NCBI GenBank assembly: GCA_963742415.1
Contig: CAVULX010000003.1
Span: 374,616-438,615, forward strand
Direction of reading: 5' to 3'
DNA from: an uncultured Parachlamydiaceae bacterium
GTDB lineage: Bacteria > Chlamydiota > Chlamydiia > Chlamydiales > Parachlamydiaceae
DNA: 64,000 bases
This document shows positions 8,616 through 41,108 of the stretch, in pieces. The notes under the pieces are model-generated. The model was not told where the DNA came from. It ran no database searches and saw nothing but the letters and a program-made list of their open reading frames with translations. The translations under genes were made by a program, and so were the position numbers. The first letter of the stretch is position 1; each line of letters begins with the position of its first letter.

Positions 8616-8779
8616 ATAAAATCCTTAGTAAAAAAAAAGAGATTAAATCATCTTACAAAAAAATACAAGGATGACGCCATTTAAAAGTGTGTTGACATTA
8701 ATGGCTACGATCAACAAACTGTCTTGTTATCGGAATGATTTTGAGAACATTTCATTAAAAAATAATCTAATTAAGAGCA

Positions 8780-10315
8780 ATGCACGTAGGATTCAGAAAC
8801 TCCATTGGTACAATTGCGTTAAACAATGCAATAAAAAATGGAAATGAAAGATTAAATAAACTGAAAGAGCAACAGAAACAATTAAACGCTCAAATTTTGT
8901 TTAATTTTGGTAAAGATTACGCCCATTTAGAATATGAAAAAAACAAGTTAATACACGAACACGACCTCTTACAAAAGCGCTTAAAAAATCTTGGGGCTCC
9001 AGATTCAGCTGATCCACAAACTGAAATAGGCGAAACTAAAAAGAACATATTAGTTATATCAGGCAAGATTGACTCCATCTCAAACCAACTCAAACAGATC
9101 AAAGATCATAATAACGCCAATTTTGGTTTTGATAAGCTCAAAGAAGAGAAGGTTTCTCATTCAAAAAGTTCCTTGAACATTGAAACTGACAGCCACGGAG
9201 TTCAAGCACTGAGTAATGCCAAGCAGACTTTAAATCAAAGAAAAATGAAGAAGGAAGAATATGGCGTCTGCCTATCTTATAAACACATATTTGATCTAAG
9301 CCGAAACATTCAATACCAAAAAAACGAAAGAGCTGAACTCATTGCTGGAAATATCATTTTGAAAAATCGAGTCAAAGAGTTTGCAGCAGCTTATGATGCT
9401 AAATTTCAAGCTGACAAAGAGCAAACCCATCAACAAGTTGAAATCGTCATAGGTAAAATTGAGACCTTATTTAATGAATTAAATGGGTTTTTAGATCAAG
9501 AACAAGAGAAAGTTCAGTTTCACTTTAATATCGTAAATGATTGGGAGAACCGCATAGATCATCTTATCGCTTTTGGCAACAAATTTCCCAAAACTTCTTT
9601 CGTTGAACTTTATACAACATCAGGCGCATATCAAGCTGCTGAAGTTGCGAGCCAGAAGATTGCTGAATGGTATAGTTGTTTTCATAAACCCCCATCTTCT
9701 AACTCATCATCAGAGCTTTTCACAGCAACGCAAATAAATGAAGCAAGACCTCAAATAAATGAAGTAAGCCCTCAAAGCCCATTGAAACAACATTCGGATG
9801 CAGAGGGAACCAAAGATCCGATTAAAGAGTTAGCGCAAAAGTGGGAAAAAAAATCGAATGGCATAGAGAACGAAAACCAGAAATTAAAAACATGCCATGC
9901 AATATTTCTAAAGATATTAGATGGGATGGAAAAAGCCTACAAATCAAAACGAAATCTGTTTATCAAAAACATAAAAAAATACTTTATAGATGCCTTTATA
10001 GAAAAAGGGGAAGCGCTAATAAAAGAGCTTGAAGCAAATAACAAAATACTTGCCGACGTTAAAGACAAAGCAGTCATAAGTGATGCAAACAAGAAATATC
10101 TGCAATTTGATCAAAAAAGCAAACCTAAACTGGATCAATTGCTCTCTGATAAAAACAATAAATTGGTACATAACTTCAATAAGTCAGACTGTTTTAAATG
10201 CCAGTCTGTTGGGTATATTAAACAAAATGAACAGATAAAATCTCAGATTAATACCATTCTCTCCCTACTTCATCAGCTTTCTAAAGATTATATTCTACCA
10301 ACCGAAGAAACATGA
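8780..10315 (+). CDS. Hypothetical coiled-coil protein 1 of 5 (orphan operon)
   Basis: 511 aa, K/E/Q/N-rich with heptad-like stretches and no signal peptide. It contains IAEWYSCFHK, a motif shared with genes 2 and 5. Its 3' end overlaps the next start by 4 nt (ATGA). Confidence 0.75.
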   Translation: MHVGFRNSIGTIALNNAIKNGNERLNKLKEQQKQLNAQILFNFGKDYAHLEYEKNKLIHEHDLLQKRLKNLGAPDSADPQTEIGETKKNILVISGKIDSISNQLKQIKDHNNANFGFDKLKEEKVSHSKSSLNIETDSHGVQALSNAKQTLNQRKMKKEEYGVCLSYKHIFDLSRNIQYQKNERAELIAGNIILKNRVKEFAAAYDAKFQADKEQTHQQVEIVIGKIETLFNELNGFLDQEQEKVQFHFNIVNDWENRIDHLIAFGNKFPKTSFVELYTTSGAYQAAEVASQKIAEWYSCFHKPPSSNSSSELFTATQINEARPQINEVSPQSPLKQHSDAEGTKDPIKELAQKWEKKSNGIENENQKLKTCHAIFLKILDGMEKAYKSKRNLFIKNIKKYFIDAFIEKGEALIKELEANNKILADVKDKAVISDANKKYLQFDQKSKPKLDQLLSDKNNKLVHNFNKSDCFKCQSVGYIKQNEQIKSQINTILSLLHQLSKDYILPTEET

Positions 10316-24614: not shown

Positions 24615-25070
24615 CTATTCAAATTGCCGTTTAGTTTTAGGGTATCGCATGGTGGCCAACTCATCCAAGGCGTTCTTTTCTACGTTAAGGTTAAGAGTTT
24701 CCCATTCACCATATTTTTTGTCTCGCAAGTTTTCTATAATTTTCCGTTTTTGCATTGCCTTCATGACCTCTCTCCTTCTTAACTCTAAAATCGCTTGCGC
24801 TTCCCGAACGATAATTCGCTGGTGATCGATTTTCTTTTTAAGCACCTCTAAGTAATCGTAATTCATCGTCAAGGATTGGGGATGGACATTGTTTTTTTGC
24901 AAAACACGAATGTGATCTGTAACTCGATCAAAGTCGCGATGAAATTTTTCTAATATCATGGACATTTTTTGCAATATTAAATGGGCCTCAAGCAGGTTTC
25001 TGTGAGCGATTTCTTCCTTCAAATGCCTAACTTTAAGCAAGGAGGCGAGATTAAAATTAAATTTTTTCAT
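24615..25070 (-). CDS. fliJ: FliJ/SctO-family export-apparatus stalk protein
   Basis: 151 aa, all-helical, with FliJ-like features (NLASLLKVR..., MQKRKIIENLRDKK...DE). It overlaps the 3' end of the ATPase gene by 14 nt, which is the canonical fliI-fliJ arrangement. Confidence 0.7.
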   Translation of the reverse strand: MKKFNFNLASLLKVRHLKEEIAHRNLLEAHLILQKMSMILEKFHRDFDRVTDHIRVLQKNNVHPQSLTMNYDYLEVLKKKIDHQRIIVREAQAILELRRREVMKAMQKRKIIENLRDKKYGEWETLNLNVEKNALDELATMRYPKTKRQFE

Positions 25071-26406
25071 TCTTTACGATTTCTTTTAAAAGCTTTTGCG
25101 TCATCTCAAAAGCAAACGACTCATTTGTTCCTTGCGACAAAAAGGATCTAATTCGGCCAATTAACATCACAGCTTCGTCAATTTTAGCATTTGATCCAGC
25201 CACATAGGCGCCAATGTTGATCAAGTCTTCAGCATCTTTATACACCTGCAAAATATCCCTTAAACGACCGGCCATATAATATTGCTCGGGTGTCGTAATA
25301 GCCAGCATCAGCCTAGAAAGGCTCTGTAAGACGTCTATGGCAGGATATTGGTTGGCTGAAGCTAATTTCCTGGAAAGAACAATGTGTCCATCTAGTATCG
25401 CCCTTACGGTATCTGCAACAGGATCATTCATGTCATCCCCTTCAACGAGGATTGTATAGATCCCCGTAATGACCCCGTGGGCAGAATTTCCAGCCCGCTC
25501 TAAAAGTTTTGGCAAGGTTGCGAATACGGAAGGCGTATATCCCCGCGTGGCGGGAGGTTCCCCAATGGCTAAACCTATTTCTCGTAACGCCATAGCATAA
25601 CGGGTGATGGAATCCATCATGAAGACGACATTTTTTCCTTGATCTCGAAAAAATTCGGCAATAGCTGTTGCAGTGTAAGCCCCTTTCGTTCTTAGCAGCG
25701 CCGCTTGATCAGAGGTTGCGACTACAACCACTGAACGGGATAAACCTTCCGGTCCCAATTCCCGTTCGATAAATTCACGCACTTCCCTTCCACGTTCTCC
25801 GATTAAAGCGATCACGTTTATATCTGCAGTGGACATTTTGGCTATCATCCCCAAGAGGGTTGATTTTCCCAAGCCGGCGCCGGAGAAAATCCCTAATCTT
25901 TGCCCTCTTCCTATGGTGCAAGTGGAATCGATCGCTTTGATTCCGGTCGATAAAACTTCGGAAATTAATTTACGCTTGAGAGGGTGGGGAGGGGGAGCCA
26001 TGATAGGATAGTATTTTTCTGCTTTGATCGGCCCTTTGTCATCGATGGGATTTCCCACAGCATCCAGAATTCTTCCACACATTCTTTCCGATACAGCCAC
26101 CAAAGGGACTTTTTTTGTCGGATAGACTTCGGAGCCCGGCGCTATATGGGTCATTTCTCCTAAAGACATTAATAAGGATTTATTATCTTTGAAGCCAACC
26201 ACTTCACAAGGGATAGCTTCTCCCTGCCTATTGAAAATGTAGCACAACTCACCCAGGTGGACTGCAGGGCCGGCCGATTCGATAAGAAGACCGATGATTT
26301 GTGTGACAACGCCACTTGTGGATAATCCCGACCATTTTTGGACCGCTTCGATTTCATTTTTTAGTGAGAAAGTAGACATAAAAATTTTAAGAGATAAACC
26401 CATCAC
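25057..26406 (-). CDS. fliI: Type III export ATPase, flagellar type by context (FliI)
   Basis: Walker A GIFSGAGLGKSTLLG, Walker B VVFMMDSITR, and an F1/FliI/SctN-family C-terminus. It is flanked by fliH-like and fliJ-like genes. The start is ambiguous (GTG 26406, ATG 26403 or ATG 26379). Confidence 0.88.
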   Translation of the reverse strand: MMGLSLKIFMSTFSLKNEIEAVQKWSGLSTSGVVTQIIGLLIESAGPAVHLGELCYIFNRQGEAIPCEVVGFKDNKSLLMSLGEMTHIAPGSEVYPTKKVPLVAVSERMCGRILDAVGNPIDDKGPIKAEKYYPIMAPPPHPLKRKLISEVLSTGIKAIDSTCTIGRGQRLGIFSGAGLGKSTLLGMIAKMSTADINVIALIGERGREVREFIERELGPEGLSRSVVVVATSDQAALLRTKGAYTATAIAEFFRDQGKNVVFMMDSITRYAMALREIGLAIGEPPATRGYTPSVFATLPKLLERAGNSAHGVITGIYTILVEGDDMNDPVADTVRAILDGHIVLSRKLASANQYPAIDVLQSLSRLMLAITTPEQYYMAGRLRDILQVYKDAEDLINIGAYVAGSNAKIDEAVMLIGRIRSFLSQGTNESFAFEMTQKLLKEIVKNEKI

Positions 26407-26709
26407 TCAGGCTTATGTAGAAATATTTATATTCTCTTTTACTGTCAACCAAATGTTCAAACTAGGAGGGAGTTTACAAAGTCCTAAGTTCTTCATTATT
26501 AACATTCTTATTTTTTTCAGTTTTTTTAATATTTTAAAAAAAATCAAATCTTTTTTGTAAAGAAAAATCTATAATTTTTAACTAAAAATGGTTTAAAAAT
26601 GGGCTTTTTGATTTCAGTTTAAATAAAATATTATTATGTTATAATTATATATAGATTGTAGAGGATATATCGATTTTAAAAGCGTAAGCTTTTTGGAAGG
26701 AGAAAAATT
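26407..26709. promoter_or_regulatory. Very AT-rich divergent intergenic region, likely carrying promoters for fliI-fliJ (minus strand) and the small ORF at 26710 (plus strand)
   Basis: TATAAT hexamers at 26570-26575 and 26640-26645 on the plus strand, plus long A/T runs. No -35 element can be assigned with confidence in this composition. Confidence 0.3.
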
Positions 26710-27018
26710 ATGAGTTCCAATGTAAATAATACATCATCAAGCACAAGTGATCCACTTGATGATCTCGCAATTTTTTACACAAGTAATGCAAATAACAAAC
26801 AACAACAAGATTCGATGGATCCTACAGATCCTACCAGTATCATGTATGATCCCACTTTGGATCCTTGCAGTCCAAAATTTGGTGCCGTTAGCGCTGCAAT
26901 TAATGGCCCGCAAGCTGTTAATGCTGTGAATAACAACACGGTAAATCCTATAGCCGTTGATGATGATAACGATAGGGCTGGCCGGAGAAATTTACGCCGC
27001 GTGGTCGATAGGATCTAA
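26710..27018 (+). CDS. Small low-complexity (N/D/P/S/T-rich) hypothetical protein inserted antisense between fliH and fliI
   Basis: 102 aa. A strong RBS GGAAGGAG lies 8 nt upstream of the ATG. The sequence looks disordered and ends in the basic tail RAGRRNLRRVVDRI. Confidence 0.55.
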   Translation: MSSNVNNTSSSTSDPLDDLAIFYTSNANNKQQQDSMDPTDPTSIMYDPTLDPCSPKFGAVSAAINGPQAVNAVNNNTVNPIAVDDDNDRAGRRNLRRVVDRI

Positions 27019-27080
27019 AATAACTTCCACGTGTTGTTGTCCGTATCCATTCCCAAATTATAAGTAGGTGTTTTTTTTGT

Positions 27081-27782
27081 TTATGATGATAAAGTTAAAA
27101 TTTCCAAATCAGATAAAAGACGATTAAGGTCAAAATTGACCAGTCCTAATGTTGTTTCTAAGCGACAACTGCCCCTTTCCATCCAGGGTGTTGAGATAAA
27201 GTTGACATCTTTTAAATCTTCCCGTTTATAGCCGAGCGCAGAAAGGTGGTTTTGCACCATTTGCAGGTCTTCCTGCGATAAAACAATATCGATAGGGACA
27301 TCTTTTAAGAAGGACTTTGCTTGGGTCAATAATTTTTCTAATAAACTGTAAAAGATCTCTGGATTGGTTAAGTGAGCACGAAGTATTTTTTCGCAAACTG
27401 CCAAAGAAAATTTGATCAGTTCGGGCTTCACCAGCTCAAACATTTCTTCTTTTCTCATTTGAAAAGTTGAAGCGGTGACATTAAGGAGTTCGGCAGCTGA
27501 CTTTAATTCGTCCCTAACATTAGCCACACCTTCTTTATATCCAATCTCTAAGCCTTCGCTCTTGCCTGCTTCGTACCCTTGCTCATGCCCCTCTTTCAAG
27601 CCTTGAGAATGCCCTTTTTTTTCGGCCATTTTTAAGAGTTTTTGAAGTGTTTTTACAGAAGGGGGTTCTGAAGTCTGTTCTGCCTCTCCGTTCTCTTCTT
27701 TTACCCCTGAATCTTGTCCGTAAAAGACAGCCCCTTCAATCTTAGCCCCGTGGATCACTTTTTTAGATTTTGAGACGTTCAT
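27081..27782 (-). CDS. fliH: FliH/SctL-family ATPase regulator (flagellar type by context)
   Basis: 233 aa. Repeated GxEEG-type motif (KEGHEQGYEAGKSEGLEIGYKEG) and a C-terminal GSCRLETTLGLVNFDLNRLLSDL, matching the FliH/SctL signature. ATGA overlap with the fliF stop. Confidence 0.75.
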   Translation of the reverse strand: MNVSKSKKVIHGAKIEGAVFYGQDSGVKEENGEAEQTSEPPSVKTLQKLLKMAEKKGHSQGLKEGHEQGYEAGKSEGLEIGYKEGVANVRDELKSAAELLNVTASTFQMRKEEMFELVKPELIKFSLAVCEKILRAHLTNPEIFYSLLEKLLTQAKSFLKDVPIDIVLSQEDLQMVQNHLSALGYKREDLKDVNFISTPWMERGSCRLETTLGLVNFDLNRLLSDLEILTLSS

Positions 27783-29758
27783 GGGGCCTCGCCTTGCACT
27801 TCTTGCATAGCATGATGGAATTTATGTGAAATTTCAGGATTGAACATTTTTATTTTTTCAATGATGACCCGTTGATGCCTTTCGGGTAAGCTATTAAAGA
27901 TAGATGCAGCCACTTTGAAGCTCTCAGCCATTTTAAGTCCATACTCCAAAGAGGTTCCCCCCAAAATCCCTGGAAGAGATCCTAGTAATAGTTCAATCTG
28001 ATTCGGATCTGTTTCATCAAACTGAGCCATTTCCACCAGGACGTGAGCTTGCAAATCGATCGGCATCCTATTTAACACAACCGAAGCTCGCTCTTGAGGT
28101 AATGAATACAGGATTAAAGCAATGGTTTGAGGAGATTCCTGACCAAGAAATGCAGCAATTTTAGAAGGTTCCCCTTCAGTCAGAATTTGCTTAATTGACA
28201 GCGGTTCATCTGAGTGCCCTGTTTTTCCGTCATTCTTGCTCAGAATGTTTGGCCGATCTTCCAACTGGGCTTTAATTGCTTCTAGAACCCCTTCTAGATC
28301 TTCTAATCTTTTTTTCTTAGTTCCTTCTTCAGCGGCTTTTAAAACCGAAACCCTTTTGGAATGTTGTTGCACGCGGAACATCATATAGAAAATCCCGAAA
28401 ACGCCCAAAGTGATGATCGCCACAAGCGCTGTGGTTATCGAATTATTTTCCGACCCTGGGGAAATTGCCTCTATCATGACTGGAGGGGGAGGGATCGGCG
28501 TCCGGTCGAACTTAATAAAATTAACAGACTGCGAAACATGAGCTGTATATCCTTTGAGGATGACTTCGAGCTGACTTTCGATATTTTTCTTCAATTTTTC
28601 TTCATTCGAAGCAATCTGATTTTCGTTTTGCTCTACTCCTTTAGCCGGAGCAAAAATTTGGTCGTCGATTAACACACCTATCGATAAGGCATCTATTTTG
28701 CCGGGCACACTGGTAATTTTGACATGGTCTACGGGCACTGCCATTTGTCTAAACTGTTGCGTTGCGAATAGCTCGGGTTGATTCTGAGAGGAAGGATTGC
28801 CTCCGTTTTGTTCGGAAGATTTCGATTGCTCTTTTGCTTTAATCGGTTGCTCGCCTGTCTCAGAAATAGACGTGACAACGGACGACCCTAAGCTAACTCC
28901 GTCAACCGAGCCGGTGTAGACTTTTCTTTCTTCAGAAATTTTATTTCTATTCATTGTCACTTGCACAGTACTATAAAAGTTGCCTGCGCCCACCACAGTC
29001 GTTAGCATCCCATCAATTTTTGCTTTTAAATATCCTTCTGCAGATAACTCCGCATTGCGAATCGAATCCAAGCCCCCTTCAGGATCTATGGCTTGATAGA
29101 GGTGCCCATTAGTGTCGGAAATCGCCACCATATTCCCGGTAAGGCCTCTGACCGCTCCGGCAACATGAAAGGTAATGGCACGCAGTTCTTGAGAATTTAA
29201 ACGAGCGCCCGGTTTCAAGCTTAAGATGACAGAGGCTTTAGCTTTGTAGTTTGCAGCCCCAAAAGGACGGGGAGGGGGAACATCAAGAATGACGTTAGCG
29301 CTTCGTACATTCTCAAATTGGGAAATATCATTTTCAAGCTGCCCTTTAAGTGCCCTTAATTCAAGAACCTGGAGCTCTTTTTCCCCTTTAATCCACGTGC
29401 TGCTATCGAAAAGCTCAAATCCTTTTTTCGTTTGCGTTTTTGGCAATCCGTTGAAAGCCAACTCTGCTCGCACCTGGTGTTCTTTCTCTTTTGGAATCCA
29501 TATCCCTTTGTTTTCGGAAATTTTATAAGGAATATTTGCGCTTTCAAAATAGGCTTTAATTTGTGCAATATCAATGCTTTGCATCCGTTCAGGCGAATAC
29601 AGCATCACATAGTTCATTGAATTGGACATGATCAGCACGACCGTCCCTAGCAAAATAAGTAGCCCTAGAATAGCAGCAAAAGCGGTTTTTTGAGAAAGCT
29701 TAAGATCCAGCCAAAAAGTTTTTAGCTGCTGTAAAAAATTTGCGAAAAAGGAATACAT
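27779..29758 (-). CDS. fliF: FliF-type MS-ring protein with a fused C-terminal FliG middle-domain-like region
   Basis: 659 aa. N-terminal TM helix followed by a YscJ/FliF-type periplasmic domain (IAQIKAYFESANIPYKISENKGIWIPKEKEHQVRAELAFNGLP). Second TM helix ITTALVAIITLGVFGIFYMMF. The cytoplasmic tail contains FLGQESPQTIALILYSLPQERASVVLNRMPIDLQAHVL (compare FliG FLQSEHPQTIAVVLSYL...LPEELQTEVL) and ...NSLPERHQRVIIEKIKMFNPEI. Confidence 0.85.
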   Translation of the reverse strand: MYSFFANFLQQLKTFWLDLKLSQKTAFAAILGLLILLGTVVLIMSNSMNYVMLYSPERMQSIDIAQIKAYFESANIPYKISENKGIWIPKEKEHQVRAELAFNGLPKTQTKKGFELFDSSTWIKGEKELQVLELRALKGQLENDISQFENVRSANVILDVPPPRPFGAANYKAKASVILSLKPGARLNSQELRAITFHVAGAVRGLTGNMVAISDTNGHLYQAIDPEGGLDSIRNAELSAEGYLKAKIDGMLTTVVGAGNFYSTVQVTMNRNKISEERKVYTGSVDGVSLGSSVVTSISETGEQPIKAKEQSKSSEQNGGNPSSQNQPELFATQQFRQMAVPVDHVKITSVPGKIDALSIGVLIDDQIFAPAKGVEQNENQIASNEEKLKKNIESQLEVILKGYTAHVSQSVNFIKFDRTPIPPPPVMIEAISPGSENNSITTALVAIITLGVFGIFYMMFRVQQHSKRVSVLKAAEEGTKKKRLEDLEGVLEAIKAQLEDRPNILSKNDGKTGHSDEPLSIKQILTEGEPSKIAAFLGQESPQTIALILYSLPQERASVVLNRMPIDLQAHVLVEMAQFDETDPNQIELLLGSLPGILGGTSLEYGLKMAESFKVAASIFNSLPERHQRVIIEKIKMFNPEISHKFHHAMQEVQGEAP

Positions 29759-29875
29759 GATAAAGCTAACCTTATAAATTAAGAAGATAGCTTTTTATTT
29801 ACAGCAGATGGAACGGGAAATCAAACTAAATTTTTTAATTACCTTGGTTTCTTTGACTGTGAGGGTGTTTAAGTT

Positions 29876-31011: not shown

Positions 31012-34000
31012 TTGACTAAGACAATTTATTCAGAGGAAGAGATTAAGCAAATTTTGCAAGCCATTTTTCTTGAAAAAAAGCATTCCAAAGATGTGAAGTT
31101 AAAATTGCAAGACAAGACCAATGAATGTGCTCGTTTGCAACATGAGCTTGAAGAACTTCAGAAAAAGATGCAAACGATCCCTTTAGATGATGTCCGCAAA
31201 TTGAAAAATCTCCTTTTTGCATTTAAGAAAAAACATGCCCAAGCCCTTTCCTCTATAGATGAAAAAAACAAACAGCTTGCTCAACTAACTCAAACAACTT
31301 CCGATATAGATGATTTAGAAAGTGAAAACCGTGCTTTAATCTCTCAAATATCAGCTATTAAAGAAAAATTTTACAAAATTCAAAACGCAGCCCCCTCGGA
31401 AAAAGAGATTAATGTCATCTCAGAAAAGTTCCAAGCAAAGTTGAATGCAGCTAACGAAATCTTAAATAAGGCTCAAGAAGAGCTCAACGAAGAGCAACAG
31501 GAAAAGGTCCATTTTAAAGCTAAGTTGGAGGAGATGACTTCTCTAAAAGAGCATTTCGAAAGACAAAACCTCGACTTAGTCCGGCAAGTTCATCATCTTG
31601 AGCCATTCAAAGAGATGACCTTGACAGCACAACAAAAGATGGCTGAATTTGAACGGATGAGGGAAGAGGATTTCGATGAAATTGAGAGCTTAAAAGAAAA
31701 AATTTCATCTAATACATTGACTGAAGACCAATTACATCTCATTGAAGACCTGAAAGAGCAATTACTTGAAATCAAAGGGGAAAACCAAACACTAACCCAC
31801 CAAGATCTGACCTTAAGGCAACGTTTTGAACAATCTGAAGGGGAACTCACCCTTGTTAAAGAAAAACATTTTCAACTTGCTGATAAATTAAAACACAGTG
31901 AATTGTGCCAAAGCGAAAATCTTCATCGAATTGAAGATCTCTTGATTCAAGTTAAGCAAATGGAGGTATTGAAAGCTTTCCTGACCCAAGAAGAGGAGCG
32001 AAATAAGGAATTAACCCAAGAACTGAATAAAATAAAAGAGTTCTCGCAAAAAGACCAGAAACAGATTGATGATTTGTTGTTTCAAACAAAACAAGTAGAA
32101 ACATTGAAATCTCTGTTGTCTCAAAGGGAAGAACGAAATAGAGAAATAACTCAAGAACTAAATAGAGTAAAAGAACTCTCTCAAGGAGACCGGCAGCAGA
32201 TTGACGATTTAGTGATTCAAACAAAGCAAATAGAGTCCTTGAAGTACTTGTTGGCTCAGCAAGAAGGAAAAAACAAAGAGTTATATCAAGAGCTGAATCA
32301 ACTAAAAGAACTCTTTGAAAATGAACATCTGCAAATTTCAGATTTGTTAATCCAAGCACAGCAAGGGGAAACACTCAAATCCTTACTGGCCCAACAAGAA
32401 GAAACAAATCAAGAATTGCATCAGGAGCTCAAACGAGCGAGAGAATTCTCTGATAGAGATCGCCAGCAAATTGAAGACTTGTTGGTCCAAGCAAAACAAG
32501 GGGAAACTTTCAAATCGTTGTTGGCTCAGCAGGAAGATATCAACAAAGAATTAAACCTCGAACTGAATCAAGCTAAAGAAATTTCTGAACGGGATCAACA
32601 TCATATCGAAGATCTGTTGCTTCATACAAAACAAATTGAGAATTTGAAATCCTTATTTGTTCAACAAGAAGAAGCAAATAACGAGTTGAATCGGGAGCTG
32701 CAACAAGCTAAAGAATTCGCTGAAAGAGATCGCCAGCGAATTGAAAAAATTGCCGCACAACTATTGGAAAAGGACAAAAAGATTTATGATTTGCAACATT
32801 TGGAAGTACGCCTTAAACGTCTGACTGAGCAAAAGCAAGCCATCGAACAAGAGTTAGAAAAAGTTCAAAATGAAGCCATAAACCGGGAAAATGTCCTCAA
32901 AGAACATCAACAACATCAAGTGCAATTAGAAAGGGTGATCCAATTTCTCAGAGAAAAATCGGAAGGGGCTCGTTTAGAAGTCACTTCCCTGCAAGAAGAG
33001 ATTCAGAAATCAGCAGAATCGTTTTTAAAGTTAACAAACGACTTGAAAACAACCAAAGAAGCGCACGATCAACTCGCAGAACAGCTGAAACACGAACAAG
33101 AAGAAAAACAAGAAGTGCATCAGGAGATTACTACCCTGCATTTGCAGGTGGAACAATTGCGAAGCCATCTCACTTCTACACAGCAAGAACTTAACGAACA
33201 ACAGTCTGGTTATGAAAAAGCTAAAAAACAGTTGGCTCAACTTGAATCCCAAAATCGGGTATTTTCCGAAACCATTTCCGAAAAAAACAAAAGTATCGAA
33301 TTTTTTGAAAAAGAGACAGCTCTGATCAAACAGTCGCTTATCCGTGGTTTGCGAGAAGCTAAAGAGCTTGAGGGGCATTATGCCGAAGTTGCCAAAGAAA
33401 AAGCCTCCATGCAAGCTAAACTGCACCAATCTCAACATCTCTTAGATAAACAAAGAAATGAGATCCACGAACTACAAGAAAAAATAAGAAGCGCCGAATC
33501 TAATACCTCATCGGCCTATCAGAATATTGAGCAGCTCAATCAACGGCTTGCTGAAAAGCAAACAAATCTTCAGCAACAAGAGGAAATAATTAAAGAAAAA
33601 GAAGCAACTTTACAAAGTCAGTTGCAACAAATCGAGCTCTTAAAACAGGAGCAATTATCTTTACAGGGAGGATTATCCCACGCTAAAAATATCATAGAAG
33701 AAAAAGAAAATGAGTTGACCCAAGCCCAGCACCATCTCGCCAAAAAAGTCAAAGAAGCAGCCCAGCTTGAAGACAAAAATGAGGAACAAAAACATTTAAT
33801 AGCAGAGCTTCAAGAGACCCTTGTAAAAAATAAAATCCGAATTGCTGAGTTGCAAACAAGCGTCGACATTCAAGAACAGCAATCCAAACAATCTCAAGAA
33901 CGGCTTCAAGAAGCCTTAAAAGCAGCTCGTACGCTTGAAACAAAATGGGAAGAAAAATATGGATCCCTTTCCGAAAAATGGGAAGCAGCTGAGGGTCGTA

Positions 34001-34257
34001 TCAAAGAACTTGAGAAAATCGAAGAAAAGCAAAAACATTTGCAAGGTTTGCTTTCAAGCCTAGGAAGTTTTTTTGAAGGCCCCATTCCGGCAACACCGGT
34101 AGAATCCTCTAAATCAACAAGGGGCTCGTTTTTAGAGGAACCCAGAAGGGCACCCCAACCGACAGAAAAGCCGCAAGAGCCTTCAAAGTCTCCCTATCAA
34201 AACCTTTTTAATATGCCCAAACCGCCAGGCCGACCACGCCAAAACTTTTTGGAGTAG
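31012..34257 (+). CDS. Giant coiled-coil protein with internal 45-aa tandem repeats and a Pro-rich C-terminal tail
   Basis: 1081 aa and almost entirely heptad-like (E/Q/K/L). TTG start 8 nt after AAAGGAG. No Walker motifs. The C-terminus is PIPATPVESS...PQPTEKPQEPSKSPYQNLFNMPKPPGRPRQNF. Confidence 0.8.
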   Translation: MTKTIYSEEEIKQILQAIFLEKKHSKDVKLKLQDKTNECARLQHELEELQKKMQTIPLDDVRKLKNLLFAFKKKHAQALSSIDEKNKQLAQLTQTTSDIDDLESENRALISQISAIKEKFYKIQNAAPSEKEINVISEKFQAKLNAANEILNKAQEELNEEQQEKVHFKAKLEEMTSLKEHFERQNLDLVRQVHHLEPFKEMTLTAQQKMAEFERMREEDFDEIESLKEKISSNTLTEDQLHLIEDLKEQLLEIKGENQTLTHQDLTLRQRFEQSEGELTLVKEKHFQLADKLKHSELCQSENLHRIEDLLIQVKQMEVLKAFLTQEEERNKELTQELNKIKEFSQKDQKQIDDLLFQTKQVETLKSLLSQREERNREITQELNRVKELSQGDRQQIDDLVIQTKQIESLKYLLAQQEGKNKELYQELNQLKELFENEHLQISDLLIQAQQGETLKSLLAQQEETNQELHQELKRAREFSDRDRQQIEDLLVQAKQGETFKSLLAQQEDINKELNLELNQAKEISERDQHHIEDLLLHTKQIENLKSLFVQQEEANNELNRELQQAKEFAERDRQRIEKIAAQLLEKDKKIYDLQHLEVRLKRLTEQKQAIEQELEKVQNEAINRENVLKEHQQHQVQLERVIQFLREKSEGARLEVTSLQEEIQKSAESFLKLTNDLKTTKEAHDQLAEQLKHEQEEKQEVHQEITTLHLQVEQLRSHLTSTQQELNEQQSGYEKAKKQLAQLESQNRVFSETISEKNKSIEFFEKETALIKQSLIRGLREAKELEGHYAEVAKEKASMQAKLHQSQHLLDKQRNEIHELQEKIRSAESNTSSAYQNIEQLNQRLAEKQTNLQQQEEIIKEKEATLQSQLQQIELLKQEQLSLQGGLSHAKNIIEEKENELTQAQHHLAKKVKEAAQLEDKNEEQKHLIAELQETLVKNKIRIAELQTSVDIQEQQSKQSQERLQEALKAARTLETKWEEKYGSLSEKWEAAEGRIKELEKIEEKQKHLQGLLSSLGSFFEGPIPATPVESSKSTRGSFLEEPRRAPQPTEKPQEPSKSPYQNLFNMPKPPGRPRQNFLE
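31930..32739 (+). repeat. Six in-frame tandem repeats of 135 bp (45 aa) inside the coiled-coil gene
   Basis: Units start at 31930, 32065, 32200, 32335, 32470 and 32605. Consensus is I(E/D)DLL.Q.KQ.E.LK.LL.QQEE.N.EL.QELN..KE.S..D.QQ. The copies are diverged. Confidence 0.9.
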
Positions 34258-36364: not shown

Positions 36365-36510
36365 AAAAAAATAAAAATGGGGAAAATGCTAGTTTTTATA
36401 GAATATCATTTTTCATGATATTTTAGTAAATCGTTTTACTTGCGACTTTTTTTGCTGCCTGATAGCATGCAACTTAATAACCTGTTACTTTAGATTTGTG
36501 GGATGTTGTC

Positions 36511-37500
36511 ATGATGCAAATAACTACAGTGAAGAATTTTTATCGCCCCTTTCCAACATTGACAAAACTTTTGTTATTTTTATGCTGCATTGGAATCTTT
36601 ACTAGTTGCGGAAGCCAAAAAGTCATTGTCAGTGGATTAAGCCAAAAAGAAGCGAATGAAATTATTGTATTTCTTGCCGGCAAAGGGATCGATGCCAACA
36701 AGGCTGAAACCACAGCAGCAGCGGGAGCTGGCGGGGCTAAAGTGCAGCTCTATGACATCTCAGTTGATCCCGTAAGAGCGATTGAAGCCATGGCGCTCCT
36801 CAACCAGGCCGGATTGCCAAGAACCCGCGGACAAAACTTATTGGAAATTTTCGGCAACGTCGGCTTAGTCCCCTCCGATTTGGAGCAAAAAATCCGGTAT
36901 GAAGCCGGGTTAGCAGAGCAGATTGCAAGCACAATCAGAAAAATTGATGGGGTTCTCGATGCCGAGGTGCAAATTTCTTTTCCTCAAGAAGATCCTCTTA
37001 ACCCAGGTAAATACATAGGCAAAATTACAGGCTCTGTCTTCGTAAAACATTCCGGAATTTTGGATGACCCAAATAGCCATTTGATCACCAAGATTAAAAG
37101 GTTAGTGGCTTCCAGCGTCACGGGATTAGATTATGATAATGTAACCGTCATCCCTGTCCGAGCACGCTATAATGAAATTCAACCAGGAACGACAGGTGTC
37201 TTAACCGAAGAAGAAAAACAATATGTCGACGTCTGGTCTATTATTCTCGCTAAAGATTCTGTGATGAGGTTTCAAATTATCTTTTTCTCCTTTGTCGTGA
37301 TCATTTTTATTTTGCTATCCTTTTTTGTCTGGATAGGCTGGAAAATTCATCCCCTCTTGAATCAATATGGAGGGTTCAGGGCCTTATTTCATTTGCATCC
37401 TCTTAAACTAAAAGAAACTCCTGAACAAAAAGAAGCTGAAACGAAAGAAGAAACCACTGCCGAAAAAGAAGAAACAGACAAAGATGTGGACATCACCTAA
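36511..37500 (+). CDS. sctJ: Type III secretion inner-membrane ring lipoprotein SctJ (CdsJ/YscJ)
   Basis: Lipobox IGIFTSC followed by GLSQKEANEIIVFLAGKGIDA, typical of the YscJ/PrgK family. C-terminal TM helix and an acidic tail. The ATG at 36511/36514 is preferred over the GTG at 36496. Confidence 0.88.
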   Translation: MMQITTVKNFYRPFPTLTKLLLFLCCIGIFTSCGSQKVIVSGLSQKEANEIIVFLAGKGIDANKAETTAAAGAGGAKVQLYDISVDPVRAIEAMALLNQAGLPRTRGQNLLEIFGNVGLVPSDLEQKIRYEAGLAEQIASTIRKIDGVLDAEVQISFPQEDPLNPGKYIGKITGSVFVKHSGILDDPNSHLITKIKRLVASSVTGLDYDNVTVIPVRARYNEIQPGTTGVLTEEEKQYVDVWSIILAKDSVMRFQIIFFSFVVIIFILLSFFVWIGWKIHPLLNQYGGFRALFHLHPLKLKETPEQKEAETKEETTAEKEETDKDVDIT

Positions 37501-37512
37501 TGGGGTTGAGCT

Positions 37513-38373
37513 ATGCAGCCAAAAAGTGCTGTTTTCATGAAGGTCTTAATTAATCGCTTTCATAAAGGATCTCTGCAATCACTTTTAGGGTGTTTTCCAA
37601 CGGAGGAAGCCAAAGAAATAGCCAATGTCGATGTCCCTTCGAATGACCCCTCCATTGGATTAAAAACGGCATCAGAAAAAATTTCTTCTATCGACTATAC
37701 TTGGTTTCTCCCTTCACTACAAAAGCTTTCTAAAAATGCGCAACAAACCGTTGCTGCTGCCTTTCCTGAACCCCACTCCTCCAAGCTCCTTCAAGCTCTA
37801 AATCTCCCCTCTTCTGCTGAAACTCCCAGCCCAATTGTAAAAAATTTTTTATTGTTAAAATGTTACAAAAACCTGCCCGGAGCCTCAGAGGTGTTACCCA
37901 AGCAATATTTACCTCAAACCCCCTTGAGCTTGATCTCCAGTATGAATAAGCGGGAGCTTGTGGAGGTGATCGATTTTCTTGGTCTTCACGATCTTGCAGA
38001 TGAACTCAAACATGTGGTCGATCAGAAAACATTAAAAAATGTCTACGCCTGCTTAAATGCCAAAGAACAACAATATCTGAAATATTGCATCCGTCAGAAA
38101 GAAAAGGTGGTTTTACCCAGTTTAGGGATCGAACGTTGGAGCGGCAATGTCGATAAGCTAAAAAGCGTCCTCCAAAGCAGAGGGATTATTAGGCTAGGCA
38201 AAGCTCTTTCTGGAGAGAATCCCGATTTCATTTGGCATGTTGCGCATAACTTAGATTCAAACAGAGGGCAAACTTTACTCAAGTATTATTCTGAAAAGCC
38301 TTTGACCAATATCACACCTGCACTCGCCCAACAAACACTTAACGTGATTAATATATTAAAAAAGAAAGAGTGA
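37513..38373 (+). CDS. T3SS-associated hypothetical protein in the position between sctJ and sctL (possible SctK-like cytoplasmic component)
   Basis: 286 aa with no recognisable motif. It is assigned only by conserved position inside the sctJ-sctL-sctRST operon, starting 12 nt after the sctJ stop. Confidence 0.6.
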   Translation: MQPKSAVFMKVLINRFHKGSLQSLLGCFPTEEAKEIANVDVPSNDPSIGLKTASEKISSIDYTWFLPSLQKLSKNAQQTVAAAFPEPHSSKLLQALNLPSSAETPSPIVKNFLLLKCYKNLPGASEVLPKQYLPQTPLSLISSMNKRELVEVIDFLGLHDLADELKHVVDQKTLKNVYACLNAKEQQYLKYCIRQKEKVVLPSLGIERWSGNVDKLKSVLQSRGIIRLGKALSGENPDFIWHVAHNLDSNRGQTLLKYYSEKPLTNITPALAQQTLNVINILKKKE

Positions 38374-38377
38374 AACC

Positions 38378-39028
38378 GTGAGCAAAAAGTTTTTTTCATT
38401 TATCCACGAAGGCAGTGTCCACATTTCCCCCAAAAAGAAAGTCGTTCCCAAAGAGGAATTTTCAAGGCTTGTTGACTCGTATGAAGTTCTAGAGCAAGTT
38501 AAAAAAGATGCCGAACAATATCGCATTGATGTGGCTGTCGAATGTGAACAACTCAAAGAACAGGCTCAAAAAGAAGGATTTGAAGAGGGGTATAAGAAGT
38601 GGCTTGAATACACCGCCCAGCTCGAAAATGAAATTGTTAAAGTCCGTCAAGACTTAGAAAAATTCCTCGTTCCGGTGGCTTTAAAAGCTGCTAAAAAAAT
38701 TGTTGGCAGGGAATTAGAAGTTTCAGAAGATGCTATTGTTGACATCGTCTCCAACTCTTTAAAAGCCGTTTCACAACATAAAAAAATTACCATCTATGTC
38801 AACAAAAAAGATCTTGAAGTCTTGGATAAATACCGCCCCCGCTTGAAGCAAATTTTCGAAAGTTTGGAAGTTTTATCTCTTAGAGAACGTGCTGACATAG
38901 CCCCCGGAGGTTCAGTCATAGAAACAGAAGGGGGCATTATTAATGCTCAGCTGGATAACCAGTGGAGAGCTTTAGAAAACGCTTTGGAAATTATCGTAAA
39001 GAAAAAGCAACCATCAGGTGAGCATTAA
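38378..39028 (+). CDS. sctL: Type III secretion stator/ATPase regulator SctL (CdsL/YscL)
   Basis: 216 aa. EGFEEGYKKWLE motif and C-terminal GGSVIETEGGIINAQLDNQWRAL (FliH/SctL signature). GTG start. Confidence 0.82.
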   Translation: MSKKFFSFIHEGSVHISPKKKVVPKEEFSRLVDSYEVLEQVKKDAEQYRIDVAVECEQLKEQAQKEGFEEGYKKWLEYTAQLENEIVKVRQDLEKFLVPVALKAAKKIVGRELEVSEDAIVDIVSNSLKAVSQHKKITIYVNKKDLEVLDKYRPRLKQIFESLEVLSLRERADIAPGGSVIETEGGIINAQLDNQWRALENALEIIVKKKQPSGEH

Positions 39029-39030
39029 TT

Positions 39031-39957
39031 ATGAGGATTTTCCCTTTTTACTTTAGAGGAGGTTCAACCCAGAATGGAATGAAGATTGCCTCCCTTTTTA
39101 CAATCAAGTCATTTTTTGTATGCTGTATTATTTTGGCCATGTTAGGGATGGTGCCTGAATCGCTTTATTCCCAAGCAGCTCCGGCCAGGCCAGCCCCTGC
39201 AGCAACCCCAGCGCCGGCAAAAGGAGCTCCGCAGCAAGCTAATCAAGCCGCCCAAAATGCTTTAAATGCTCCTTTTGACAATTTTAAAAGGCCTTCTGTC
39301 ATTACTCAAGCTGTAGCTTTGACCATCATGTCCTTGCTGCCTTTTATTATCATGATCTTAACCTCTTTTCTGAAAATTGTGATCGTCCTTTCCCTTTTAC
39401 GCAGCGCATTGGGGGTTCAACAAGCACCTCCTAACCAGATCATCAACGGGGTCGCATTTATGCTCAGCCTCTTTATTATGTATCCGACTGTTTTGAAAAT
39501 GTACGATGCTGCAGAAAAAGTCATCGTCGAAACACGAGCCCCAGACTCGATCCTGTCCCCTCAATCTTCTCAATACATAATCGAAGTCGCCGACCAAGCT
39601 AAAGAGCCTTTACGGGAGTTCCTGAAAAAAAATTCAGCGACAAAGCACCAAGCCCTATTTTATCGGATCGCTTACCGAATTTTACCCGAAAACTACCGCC
39701 CCACTTTAAAGCCTGATGATTTTATGATCCTTGTTCCTGCATTCATTACAAGCCAACTCAAAGAAGCTTTTGAGATCGGCGTGTTGATCTACATCCCCTT
39801 TTTCGTCATCGATCTTGTGACATCCAATGTTTTGCTTGCTATGGGGATGATGATGCTTTCTCCTGTGACGATTTCAATGCCCTTAAAACTGTTCTTGCTC
39901 GTGATGCTTGATGGATGGACGCTCTTGGTTGACGGTCTTGTTTCAACATTTAGATAA
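39031..39957 (+). CDS. sctR: Type III secretion export-gate protein SctR (CdsR/YscR) with a long Ala/Pro-rich N-terminal extension
   Basis: 308 aa. FliP/SctR core (LLPFIIMILTSFLKIVIVLSLLRSALGVQQAPPNQIINGVAF...), preceded by about 90 aa that include PARPAPAATPAPAKGAPQQANQAAQ. Confidence 0.9.
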   Translation: MRIFPFYFRGGSTQNGMKIASLFTIKSFFVCCIILAMLGMVPESLYSQAAPARPAPAATPAPAKGAPQQANQAAQNALNAPFDNFKRPSVITQAVALTIMSLLPFIIMILTSFLKIVIVLSLLRSALGVQQAPPNQIINGVAFMLSLFIMYPTVLKMYDAAEKVIVETRAPDSILSPQSSQYIIEVADQAKEPLREFLKKNSATKHQALFYRIAYRILPENYRPTLKPDDFMILVPAFITSQLKEAFEIGVLIYIPFFVIDLVTSNVLLAMGMMMLSPVTISMPLKLFLLVMLDGWTLLVDGLVSTFR

Positions 39958-39978
39958 ATCTAAAGGAGTAAAGGAAAT

Positions 39979-40254
39979 ATGTTCCAAACACAAGTCATCC
40001 AATTGGCTTATCAAGGTCTCCTTTTGATTCTCATCTTGTCTGCACCCCCGATCCTCATCAGTATGTTTTTTGGTATCCTTGTGGCGATCTTTCAAGCCGC
40101 GACACAAATTCAGGAGCAAACCCTCTCATTTACGATTAAACTAGTTGCTGTCACCTTGACGCTGATGTTTATGGGGGGATGGCTGGGGGCTCAAATCATG
40201 CAATTTGCGACCAATATTTTCACACACTTTCCCCAATGGAGCTTCAGCTCCTAG
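39979..40254 (+). CDS. sctS: Type III secretion export-gate protein SctS (CdsS/YscS)
   Basis: 91 aa with two TM helices. FliQ/SctS pattern (LLLILILSAPPILISMFFGILVAIFQAATQIQEQTLSF). Confidence 0.9.
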   Translation: MFQTQVIQLAYQGLLLILILSAPPILISMFFGILVAIFQAATQIQEQTLSFTIKLVAVTLTLMFMGGWLGAQIMQFATNIFTHFPQWSFSS

Positions 40255-40268
40255 GAAGGTTGAGGGCT

Positions 40269-41108
40269 ATGGGACAAGATTACGTCACCATTTTTATGAA
40301 TTCTGTCTTTGCCACAGGGGAAGTGACAGGATTATTGACCTTATTTTTTCTATTTTTAGCCCGGATGCTCCCGATTATCGCCTTGTCCCCCTTTTTTGGA
40401 GCACGCGTCTTGCCCCATCCAGTGAAGGTGTGTTTTGCCATTTCCCTTTTTGTCATCATGCTGCCCCAGCTATTGCTAGTGACGACCACGCATCTTGAAT
40501 TCAACTTTATGGCTCTTCTTTATCTTGTCAAAGAACTTTTTGTGGGATTTGCCTTAGGGTACCTTATCAGCATGCCGTTTATCATCGTGCAAAATGCCGG
40601 CATCATCATCGACCACCAACGGGGGGGGGCTAGCTTAATGGTCAATGACCCGACCATTCAAAACCAATCCTCCCCACTAGGAACCCTCTTTAACTTTGTT
40701 TTGATCTATATATTTTTTACTATCGATGGTCCCTTTCTCTTTATCGATGCGATCGTTTCTTCTTATGAATTGATCCCTCCAGACCAATTTTTTAATACCC
40801 ATTTCTTTTTCAAGGGTTCCGAATTTTGGCAAATGCAGATGCAGATGTTAAACAAAGTGATGATCATTTCTATTCGGCTAGCAACACCCGCCCTCCTCGC
40901 CATTTTAATGACAGATACGTTTTTAGGAATTGCTAACCGTTTGGCCCCGCAAGTGCAAATTACCTTTTTAGGGATGCCATTAAAATCCCTTCTGGCACTG
41001 ACAGTAATTTGCTTTGGATGGAGGCTATTTTCTGAAGAGCTTGTCAGGCTATCTTACGAATGGATTAACCTCTGTAAATACATGATCACGATGTTCAAGC
41101 CGCCTTAA
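40269..41108 (+). CDS. sctT: Type III secretion export-gate protein SctT (CdsT/YscT)
   Basis: FliR/SctT-like multi-TM protein (LARMLPIIALSPFFG...). I prefer the ATG at 40269 (AGGAAGG upstream). Alternatives are 40236 or the ORF-track start at 40179. Confidence 0.85.
   Translation: MGQDYVTIFMNSVFATGEVTGLLTLFFLFLARMLPIIALSPFFGARVLPHPVKVCFAISLFVIMLPQLLLVTTTHLEFNFMALLYLVKELFVGFALGYLISMPFIIVQNAGIIIDHQRGGASLMVNDPTIQNQSSPLGTLFNFVLIYIFFTIDGPFLFIDAIVSSYELIPPDQFFNTHFFFKGSEFWQMQMQMLNKVMIISIRLATPALLAILMTDTFLGIANRLAPQVQITFLGMPLKSLLALTVICFGWRLFSEELVRLSYEWINLCKYMITMFKPP

Follow-up and report, generated by a model that had tools for sequence, protein, structure and literature searches.

A natural fusion of FliF to the FliG middle domain, without the torque domain, at a Parachlamydiaceae flagellar-type export locus

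We analyzed a stretch of 64,000 nucleotides from an uncultured Parachlamydiaceae bacterium (GenBank assembly GCA_963742415.1, contig CAVULX010000003.1, positions 374,616 to 438,615; hereafter the window) and found that its fliF gene, here designated fliF::fliG', encodes a single chain of 659 amino acids (aa) that combines FliF with part of FliG. The N-terminal two thirds of this open reading frame (ORF) are a full-length, bona fide FliF. The last ~140 residues are homologous to residues ~104-237 of FliG and keep ARM_M, helix MC and ARM_C. The protein, FliF-FliG', has neither FliG_N nor the FliG torque domain. We propose, with a probability of about 0.7, that fliF was joined in frame to the remnant of a neighbouring fliG and that the product provides a non-rotating MS-ring platform for an export module.

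A related protein has been described in the Chlamydiaceae, where a FliF of ~330 aa, lacking part of the periplasmic region, is fused to the FliG M region; it was proposed as a possible binder of SctQ and as possibly ancestral (Bergeron 2016, PeerJ; PMC4768692). The central idea of an earlier annotation made from these letters (the original prediction), that of a natural FliF-FliG fusion keeping the middle domain and deprived of the torque domain, had thus already been published. The window protein is a longer and less reduced version of the Chlamydiaceae fusion, and what is novel in it is the retention of the full FliF periplasmic part, the FliF tail helix and ARM_C. We found no description of such long environmental forms, or of the erosion series to which they belong, in the open-access literature, including PMC5604735, PMC8242063, PMC9816063 and PMC12199754.

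Results

A full-length FliF with a shortened cytoplasmic tail

The features of the locus are collected in Table 1. The stop codon of fliF::fliG' and the start of fliH overlap by 4 nucleotides, and a protein identical to the product is present in public data (P0001). Two transmembrane (TM) helices flank a periplasmic region made of RBM1, RBM2 and RBM3 with its beta-collar, an organization found both by the profiles and by AlphaFold2 (AF2) modeling combined with Foldseek. Pfam places PF01514 on residues 46-221 (E 3e-40) and PF08345 on residues 252-381. The FliF model TIGR00206 aligns residues 3-463 to profile positions 3-476 of 555, with a score of 152.6 bits that passes its curated equivalog cutoff of 129.75, while the SctJ model TIGR02544 gives 28.3 bits, under its cutoff of 161.95.

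The original prediction had counted about 190 aa after the second TM helix, in agreement with the ~190 cytoplasmic residues measured here. They include a helix, LEDLEGVLEAIKAQLEDRPN, that can be aligned with the cytoplasmic tail of FliF in chlamydiae without the fusion. The final ~20 residues of the unfused tails have no counterpart in the window protein, where they are replaced by a linker and the FliG part. Of the two-helix FliF tail that binds FliG_N, the first helix alone is kept.

Table 1. Features of the fliF::fliG' locus and of the injectisome cluster in the window
Feature	Coordinates	Strand	Length or residues	Basis or remark
fliF::fliG' ORF	27779..29758	minus	659 aa	ATG at 29758, stop 27779-27781
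TM helix 1	29648..29704	minus	~19-37	Kyte-Doolittle; AF2 helix 21-45
Periplasmic FliF region (RBM1, RBM2, RBM3 + beta-collar)	28451..29623	minus	46-436	
TM helix 2	28376..28432	minus	~443-461	Kyte-Doolittle; AF2 helix 439-471
First helix of FliF cytoplasmic tail, kept	28250..28309	minus	~484-503	AF2 helix 487-501
Fusion junction, flexible linker	28199..28249	minus	504-520	boundaries from blastp and profile
FliG ARM_M	27983..28198	minus	521-592	E-S-P-Q-T version of the EHPQ motif
Helix MC / linker equivalent	27908..27982	minus	593-617	profile alignment, AF2
FliG ARM_C equivalent	27797..27907	minus	618-654	TIGR00207, own FliG profile, Foldseek
fliH	27081..27782	minus	233 aa	PF02108, E 1e-10; best NCBIfam matches are FliH models
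fliI, flagellar-type export ATPase	25057..26406	minus	449 aa	TIGR03497 FliI_clade2, 635 bits, cutoff 629.8
fliJ	24615..25070	minus	151 aa	TIGR02473, 57.1 bits, cutoff 50.45
sctJ	36496-37500			injectisome cluster
ORF possibly in SctK position	37513-38373		286 aa	no Pfam match
sctL	38378-39028			
sctR	39031-39957			
sctS	39979-40254			
sctT	40179-41108			

The tail is derived from FliG and stops before the torque domain

Positions 27782-28175 (minus strand) encode residues 528-659, the last 132 codons of the ORF, and their translation contains ...PSKIAAFLGQESPQTIALILYSLPQERASVVLNRMPIDLQAHVLVEMAQFDETDPN...FKVAASIFNSLPERHQRVIIEKIKMFNPEISHKFHHAMQEVQGEAP* up to the end of the protein. The peptides quoted in the original prediction occur in this segment exactly as written, and the two Thermotoga FliG segments that it gave are both found in the phmmer alignment with T. 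maritima FliG-MC (1lkv), the best match among the PDB sequences (E 4.4e-10). When the FliG_N, FliG_M and FliG_C profiles of Pfam were compared with the protein, FliG_M alone exceeded its cutoff: it matches residues 531-590 with an E value of 5.2e-17 and a score of 62.3 bits for a cutoff of 25. FliG_N gave 22.8 bits, below cutoff and located on the ARM_M region, and FliG_C (PF01706) did not match the protein at E values up to 1. MgtE_N reached 18.4 bits, below its gathering cutoff of 25.9. With TIGR00207, the fliG model, the alignment runs from residue 525 to 651 and takes up positions 114-238 of the 338 in the profile; the whole-protein score of 59.9 bits is short of the curated cutoff of 226.7.

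The last 160 aa were also compared by exhaustive phmmer search with 1.84 billion representative proteins. This returned 660 matches, nearly all of them ~330-350 aa long and aligned at about positions 110-240, which is the span expected for the M and ARM_C parts of a canonical FliG. A hidden Markov model (HMM) of 337 positions was built from 68 full-length FliG-like proteins. The window protein covers positions 104-237 of this HMM and nothing else, and it ends one residue ahead of MFVFEDL, the conserved motif at the start of the C-alpha1-6 torque domain. The claim that the protein stops before the FliG C-terminal domain is borne out by this boundary. At the junction, FliG residues 1 to ~103, that is FliG_N, are missing relative to the unfused relatives. 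The FliG part named in the original prediction thus needs completion: the middle domain is indeed retained, but so is ARM_C, and FliG_N together with ~20 residues of the FliF tail has been deleted. Since FliG_C is lost, MotA cannot be contacted and torque cannot be generated via this protein. The glycine pair at residues 599-600 was considered as the canonical Gly-Gly hinge that precedes ARM_C and was not retained as such, because the hinge positions of the HMM (198-199) align to E-S.

Structural predictions gave the same assignment. Using an alignment of 60 sequences, AF2 modeled residues 462-659 with a mean predicted local distance difference test (pLDDT) of 83, above 90 for residues ~522-654 and 89-97 in ARM_M. 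Searching the PDB with this tail model, Foldseek placed 4fhr_B (FliG-MC with FliM) on top, with a root mean square deviation of 3.5 A over 122 columns and a probability of 1.0, followed by 3ajc and the FliG chains of the Salmonella C ring; the cytoplasmic domains of MgtE came lower. The model of the full-length protein (pLDDT 80) comprises RBM1, RBM2, RBM3 with the beta-collar, TM2, the tail helix 487-501, the linker and the FliG-like module, with residues 506-516 of the linker disordered (pLDDT below 50). It matches the Salmonella FliF MS ring (8t8p_AA, 394 columns, E 4e-16), and the same search also retrieved 4fhr_B. The engineered Vibrio FliF-FliG fusion is among both the sequence and the fold matches of the window protein. 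The FliG-like identity of the tail is far beyond chance.

ARM_M is conserved and its FliM-contacting motif appears to be kept in part

Conservation was expressed as the mean pairwise identity among 11 long fusions. It amounts to 58% in RBM1-2, 46% in RBM3, 40% in ARM_M, 26% in ARM_C and 18% in the junction linker, so that ARM_M is comparable to RBM3 and directly adjoins the least conserved segment of the protein. The EHPQR motif, which contacts FliM, appears to be kept in part: the window protein has E541-S-P-Q, with S in place of H. E541 is invariant among the long fusions, and the E, P and A of the motif are nearly invariant in a wider alignment.

The C-terminal positions 295-337 of NF004606, the FliF model of the Chlamydiaceae, match residues 532-574 of the window protein. 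This model fits the short chlamydial forms end to end, while the window protein scores 64.1 bits against it, below the cutoff of 297.

The tail occupies the position of fliG in a conserved operon

The contigs of homologues and a scan of species-representative GTDB genomes, a set that does not include the genome of the window, provided 45 chlamydial loci. The gene order fliF-[fliG]-fliH-fliI-fliJ-UDPGP is the same in all of them, often with RuvC-GT9 ahead of it as in the window, and wherever fliF carries the stub there is no separate fliG at that locus. This shared order indicates that the FliG-like tail is the positional ortholog of fliG. In the window, fliH, fliI and fliJ are intact, with FliI and FliJ above the flagellar equivalog cutoffs. 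No other ORF of the 64-kb window matches our FliG HMM, and neither fliM, sctQ nor flhA occurs within it. The findings that the original prediction had listed as evidence against itself were thus looked for and not encountered: FliG_M is strong, MgtE_N stays below threshold and there is no second fliG within 64 kb.

The loci differ in how much of FliG is left and in how it is linked to FliF. A FliF of ~540 aa accompanies a separate full FliG of 344-378 aa in 10 GTDB genomes (e.g. L003/L009), and a FliF of 512 aa accompanies a separate full FliG of 328 aa at one further locus (L044). At another locus (L045, Logan SRR21360251), next to a FliF of 518 aa, a separate fliG at 9559-10098 is cut to 179 aa and contains FliG_N and ARM_M only, with a degenerate EHPQ motif (YSAKN); its neighbours, RuvA-RuvC-x-GT9 and UDPGP-GPD-YjeF, are those of the window. 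Loss of the torque domain therefore happens without fusion too. Among the fused proteins, those of 753-754 aa keep both M and C (L002, L014); those of 600-685 aa keep M and ARM_C, as in the window, a Parachlamydiaceae metagenome-assembled genome (MAG; L001=L005), P0002-P0009 and P0021; others combine a long FliF with ARM_M only (560-602 aa); and short forms of 342-459 aa with ARM_M only are found in 25 GTDB genomes. ARM_M is kept in 27/27 fused GTDB loci.

Where FliG_C survives in the clade of the window (L044, 4821-5807; P0006 = L002, 6492-8753; P0078 = L014), the charges of the torque helix, at positions which we take to be the equivalents of E. coli R281, D288, D289 and R297, have been replaced; P0006 reads QDQ...HK, versus KRQ...DE in unfused chlamydial FliG. 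The charges are retained in the unfused clade with the ~540-aa FliF (L003, P0125). In a rough neighbour-joining (NJ) tree of the FliF part, the long fusions group with the L044- and L045-type proteins, apart from the short fusions, which suggests more than one truncation event.

Other features of the operon and of the window

A separate injectisome cluster (36496-41108) lies ~7 kb from fliF::fliG'. Because it has its own sctJ, FliF-FliG' is a second ring protein and not that of the injectisome.

Within the export operon, fliH and fliI are separated by a 674-bp insert (26407-27080); in locus L001, from a Parachlamydiaceae MAG, the distance between them is 25 bp. The insert holds, on the opposite strand, a 102-aa ORF of low complexity (rich in N, D, P and T; 26710-27018) without Pfam match, and a Logan contig has it as a called gene too. 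Sigma70-like hexamers are present on both strands at 26618-26673, so that fliI-fliJ may have a promoter of their own. The sigma70 scan as a whole, like the terminator scan, gave matches at chance level. The sigma54 dependence of fliF in C. trachomatis motivated a scan for sigma54 promoters: none was found upstream of fliF in 29759-29875, and the matches across the window were at chance level.

A 1081-aa protein rich in Glu, Gln and Lys, coiled-coil-like and without Pfam match, is encoded at 31012-34257, and contains about five tandem repeats of 135 bp (45 aa) at 31999-32745. Its place between RuvC and GT9 is taken in L002 and L045 by unannotated proteins of 753 aa and 594 aa, respectively. Elsewhere, seven successive ORFs of 125-617 aa at 6762-14284 have no Pfam match; this region is of lower GC content (0.36-0.37) with a strong positive AT skew, and may be a lineage-specific or effector island. 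The window also encodes an F-box-like protein (47212-48696) and an adjacent pair of BTB/POZ proteins (61054-62394 and 62493-63791), eukaryote-like domain proteins of a type known from amoeba-associated chlamydiae. These proteins and the relatives of the threonyl-tRNA synthetase put the organism with the Parachlamydiaceae-like chlamydiae of the amoeba-symbiont type. Two adjacent nitrogen-type phosphotransferase system (PTS) EIIA-2 genes lie at 48735-49987, the first with an N-terminal HTH_17 DNA-binding domain.

Discussion

Comparison with known fusions

The closest known relative is the Chlamydiaceae fusion (CT719 / Cpn0860; NF004606). As in the window, a single polypeptide starts with the FliF/YscJ ring part, has two TM helices and ends in a FliG middle domain, its gene lies upstream of fliH-like and fliI genes, and the same hypothesis applies to it, that of a non-rotating platform possibly binding SctQ. 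It differs by its size of ~330-340 aa, its reduced periplasmic part (RBM2 and one further RBM) and the presence of ARM_M only, whereas the window protein has 659 aa, the full RBM1-3 with the collar, the FliF tail helix and ARM_C, and passes the FliF cutoff. In C. pneumoniae, the C-terminal 70 aa of FliF (Cpn0860 residues 271-341, FliG-M-like) are required to pull down the cytoplasmic domain of FlhA, while neither FliI nor the FliH-like Cpn0859 bound FliF (PMC2830194); the FlhA cytoplasmic domain is the only experimental partner reported there for this homologous C-terminus. Sigma54/sigma28-dependent expression of fliF, fliI and flhA is reported for C. trachomatis (PMC10597470).

Canonical systems have FliF and FliG as separate proteins (L003/L009, L044; T. 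maritima 1lkv and 4fhr). They share homologous ARM_M, helix MC and ARM_C with the window protein, and the chlamydial loci among them have the same operon position and order, fliF-fliG-fliH-fliI-fliJ. In contrast, canonical FliG is a free protein of 330-350 aa, bound non-covalently through FliG_N to the FliF tail and bearing the charged residues of the torque helix. Two laboratory fusions are also comparable. A deletion-type FliF-FliG fusion of Salmonella, from which the FliF C-terminus and most of FliG_N are removed, still builds C rings (PMC7355467); like the window protein it results from in-frame joining with loss of the FliF tail and FliG_N, and it shows that rings can still assemble when FliG is tethered 1:1 to the MS ring. 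Unlike the window protein, which has no torque domain, the mutant still has the C-terminal domain of FliG, and it rotates and binds FliM/FliN. The engineered Vibrio fusion (PDB 8z4d/8z4g; PMC11481574) is likewise a covalent chain and forms rings, but it is artificial, joins the two full-length proteins and has all FliG domains.

A model for the origin and role of FliF-FliG'

An in-frame deletion is the most likely event by which the stub became part of fliF. We infer that the final ~20 codons of fliF would have disappeared from an ancestral fliF-fliG-fliH-fliI-fliJ operon along with the part of fliG coding for FliG_N. The part coding for the torque domain would have been lost separately, FliG_C having decayed and then been deleted after the loss of motility. 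The product is a complete MS-ring subunit whose cytoplasmic end bears one FliG ARM_M/ARM_C module per subunit, and it may assemble into an MS ring that does not rotate and has a FliG-M ring built in beneath it. Such a ring could be the membrane docking platform for the flagellar-type FliH-FliI-FliJ export module, probably with a flagellar-type FlhA, and would work beside the separate injectisome. The proposal of a docking platform is based on the finding that the C. pneumoniae FliF C-terminus is needed for the pull-down of FlhA_C.

The domain-swap model of canonical FliG rings is the basis for a further idea: by analogy, ARM_C could allow a head-to-tail stacking of ARM_C and ARM_M between neighbouring subunits. 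In the AF2 monomer of the tail, the arrangement is the compact intramolecular one of 4fhr and 3ajc. The stub may also dock FliM or SctQ, as the original prediction and Bergeron 2016 proposed, but this is unsupported in our analysis.

Several points weigh against a functional export platform. A second fliG, fliM/fliN, motAB or a complete flagellar set may be present beyond the 64-kb window. ARM_C is weakly conserved (26% mean identity) and lost in many relatives, and may be decaying instead of functional. FliF-FliG' is 45% identical to its closest genomic relative, from a Parachlamydiaceae MAG, versus 78% for threonyl-tRNA synthetase (ThrRS), which indicates a fast evolution of the fusion; the ThrRS of the window is 75-78% identical to Parachlamydia sp. 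and Parachlamydiaceae MAG proteins. The order and number of the deletion events rest on a rough NJ tree that carries no support values. Finally, R160 of the EHPQR motif has been replaced, the equivalent residue being E576 in the window protein, Ala in most relatives and Cys in the unfused FliG of L003. We did not keep this substitution as an argument against FliM binding: the unfused and apparently functional FliG of L003 also has no Arg, so that the position can be used neither for nor against such binding.

These points bear on the alternatives to a functional platform. The tail might be a non-functional in-frame remnant on its way to loss, a mere cytoplasmic extension of FliF; the stepwise C-terminal erosion among relatives, from M+C to M+ARM_C to M only, would fit such a decay, as would the low identity of ARM_C among the long fusions and a whole protein that evolves much faster than ThrRS. 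We consider it unlikely, since ARM_M persists in every fused GTDB locus (27/27) across deeply divergent chlamydiae, aligns with the C-terminal part of the Chlamydiaceae FliF model and is conserved at 40%, like RBM3 and far over the 18% of the adjacent linker. The fold of the tail is predicted with pLDDT values above 90, E541 is invariant in the long fusions with E, P and A of the motif nearly so more widely, and the homologous segment in C. pneumoniae is required for FlhA binding (PMC2830194). It is very improbable that the tail is an MgtE_N-type or generic armadillo-like helical repeat, independently acquired and merely resembling FliG. The FliG and MgtE_N folds are related, and a weak MgtE_N match (18.4 bits) as well as MgtE structures lower in the Foldseek list were obtained, but FliG_M scores 62.3 bits with MgtE_N under its 25.9-bit cutoff, the top sequence and fold matches are all FliG and reach through ARM_C, and the domain is located where the unfused relatives have fliG. 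An MgtE_N-only reading was rejected on the two profile scores and on the Foldseek ranking of FliG over MgtE.

A rotating flagellum could also have been retained. In that case the fusion would supply an MS ring bearing a tethered FliG-M, and torque would come from a second, canonical FliG or from some other protein. Complete flagellar gene sets do exist in some chlamydiae (PMC5604735), the FliF part is not shortened, has RBM3 and the collar and scores above the equivalog cutoff, and our search for fliG extended over the 64-kb window. We nevertheless regard this as quite improbable. The stub sits in the fliG slot of a conserved operon with no further FliG-like ORF within 64 kb, and the relatives of the same clade that have FliG_C have lost the charges of the torque helix. 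The FliG_N of a free FliG would have no docking partner, as the FliF tail has lost its final ~20 residues; and the F-box and BTB proteins, together with the injectisome cluster, are typical of non-motile amoeba symbionts. The platform for export thus remains our preferred explanation of the fusion.

Implications

The window protein does not reveal a new kind of system. What the orphan flagellar genes (fliF, fliH, fliI, fliJ, flhA) do in non-motile chlamydiae has long been a puzzle, and the loci compared here form a natural deletion series that shows which piece of FliG is indispensable without rotation: ARM_M is always there, ARM_C sometimes, and the torque domain is lost. The series mirrors the classic Salmonella FliF-FliG deletion-fusion, and this supports the view that the structure tolerates FliG being covalently tethered, 1:1, to the MS ring. 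It directs attention to the small ARM_M domain, for which FlhA_C, FliH and SctQ/SctK are candidate partners. As a tentative generalization, about which we are doubtful, FliG may have been eroded repeatedly and from the outside in throughout the phylum, losing the torque charges, then C-alpha1-6, then ARM_C, with FliG_N bypassed by the fusion and the MS-ring-tethered ARM_M left as an irreducible core; the window protein would be a snapshot of this process. If this is true, FliG-M would have a rotation-independent role in type III export, for instance in positioning the FlhA_C ring or the FliH-FliI complex, and such a role could also hide in ordinary flagella. The chlamydial rings could also resemble an intermediate between a flagellum and a non-rotating secretion machine.

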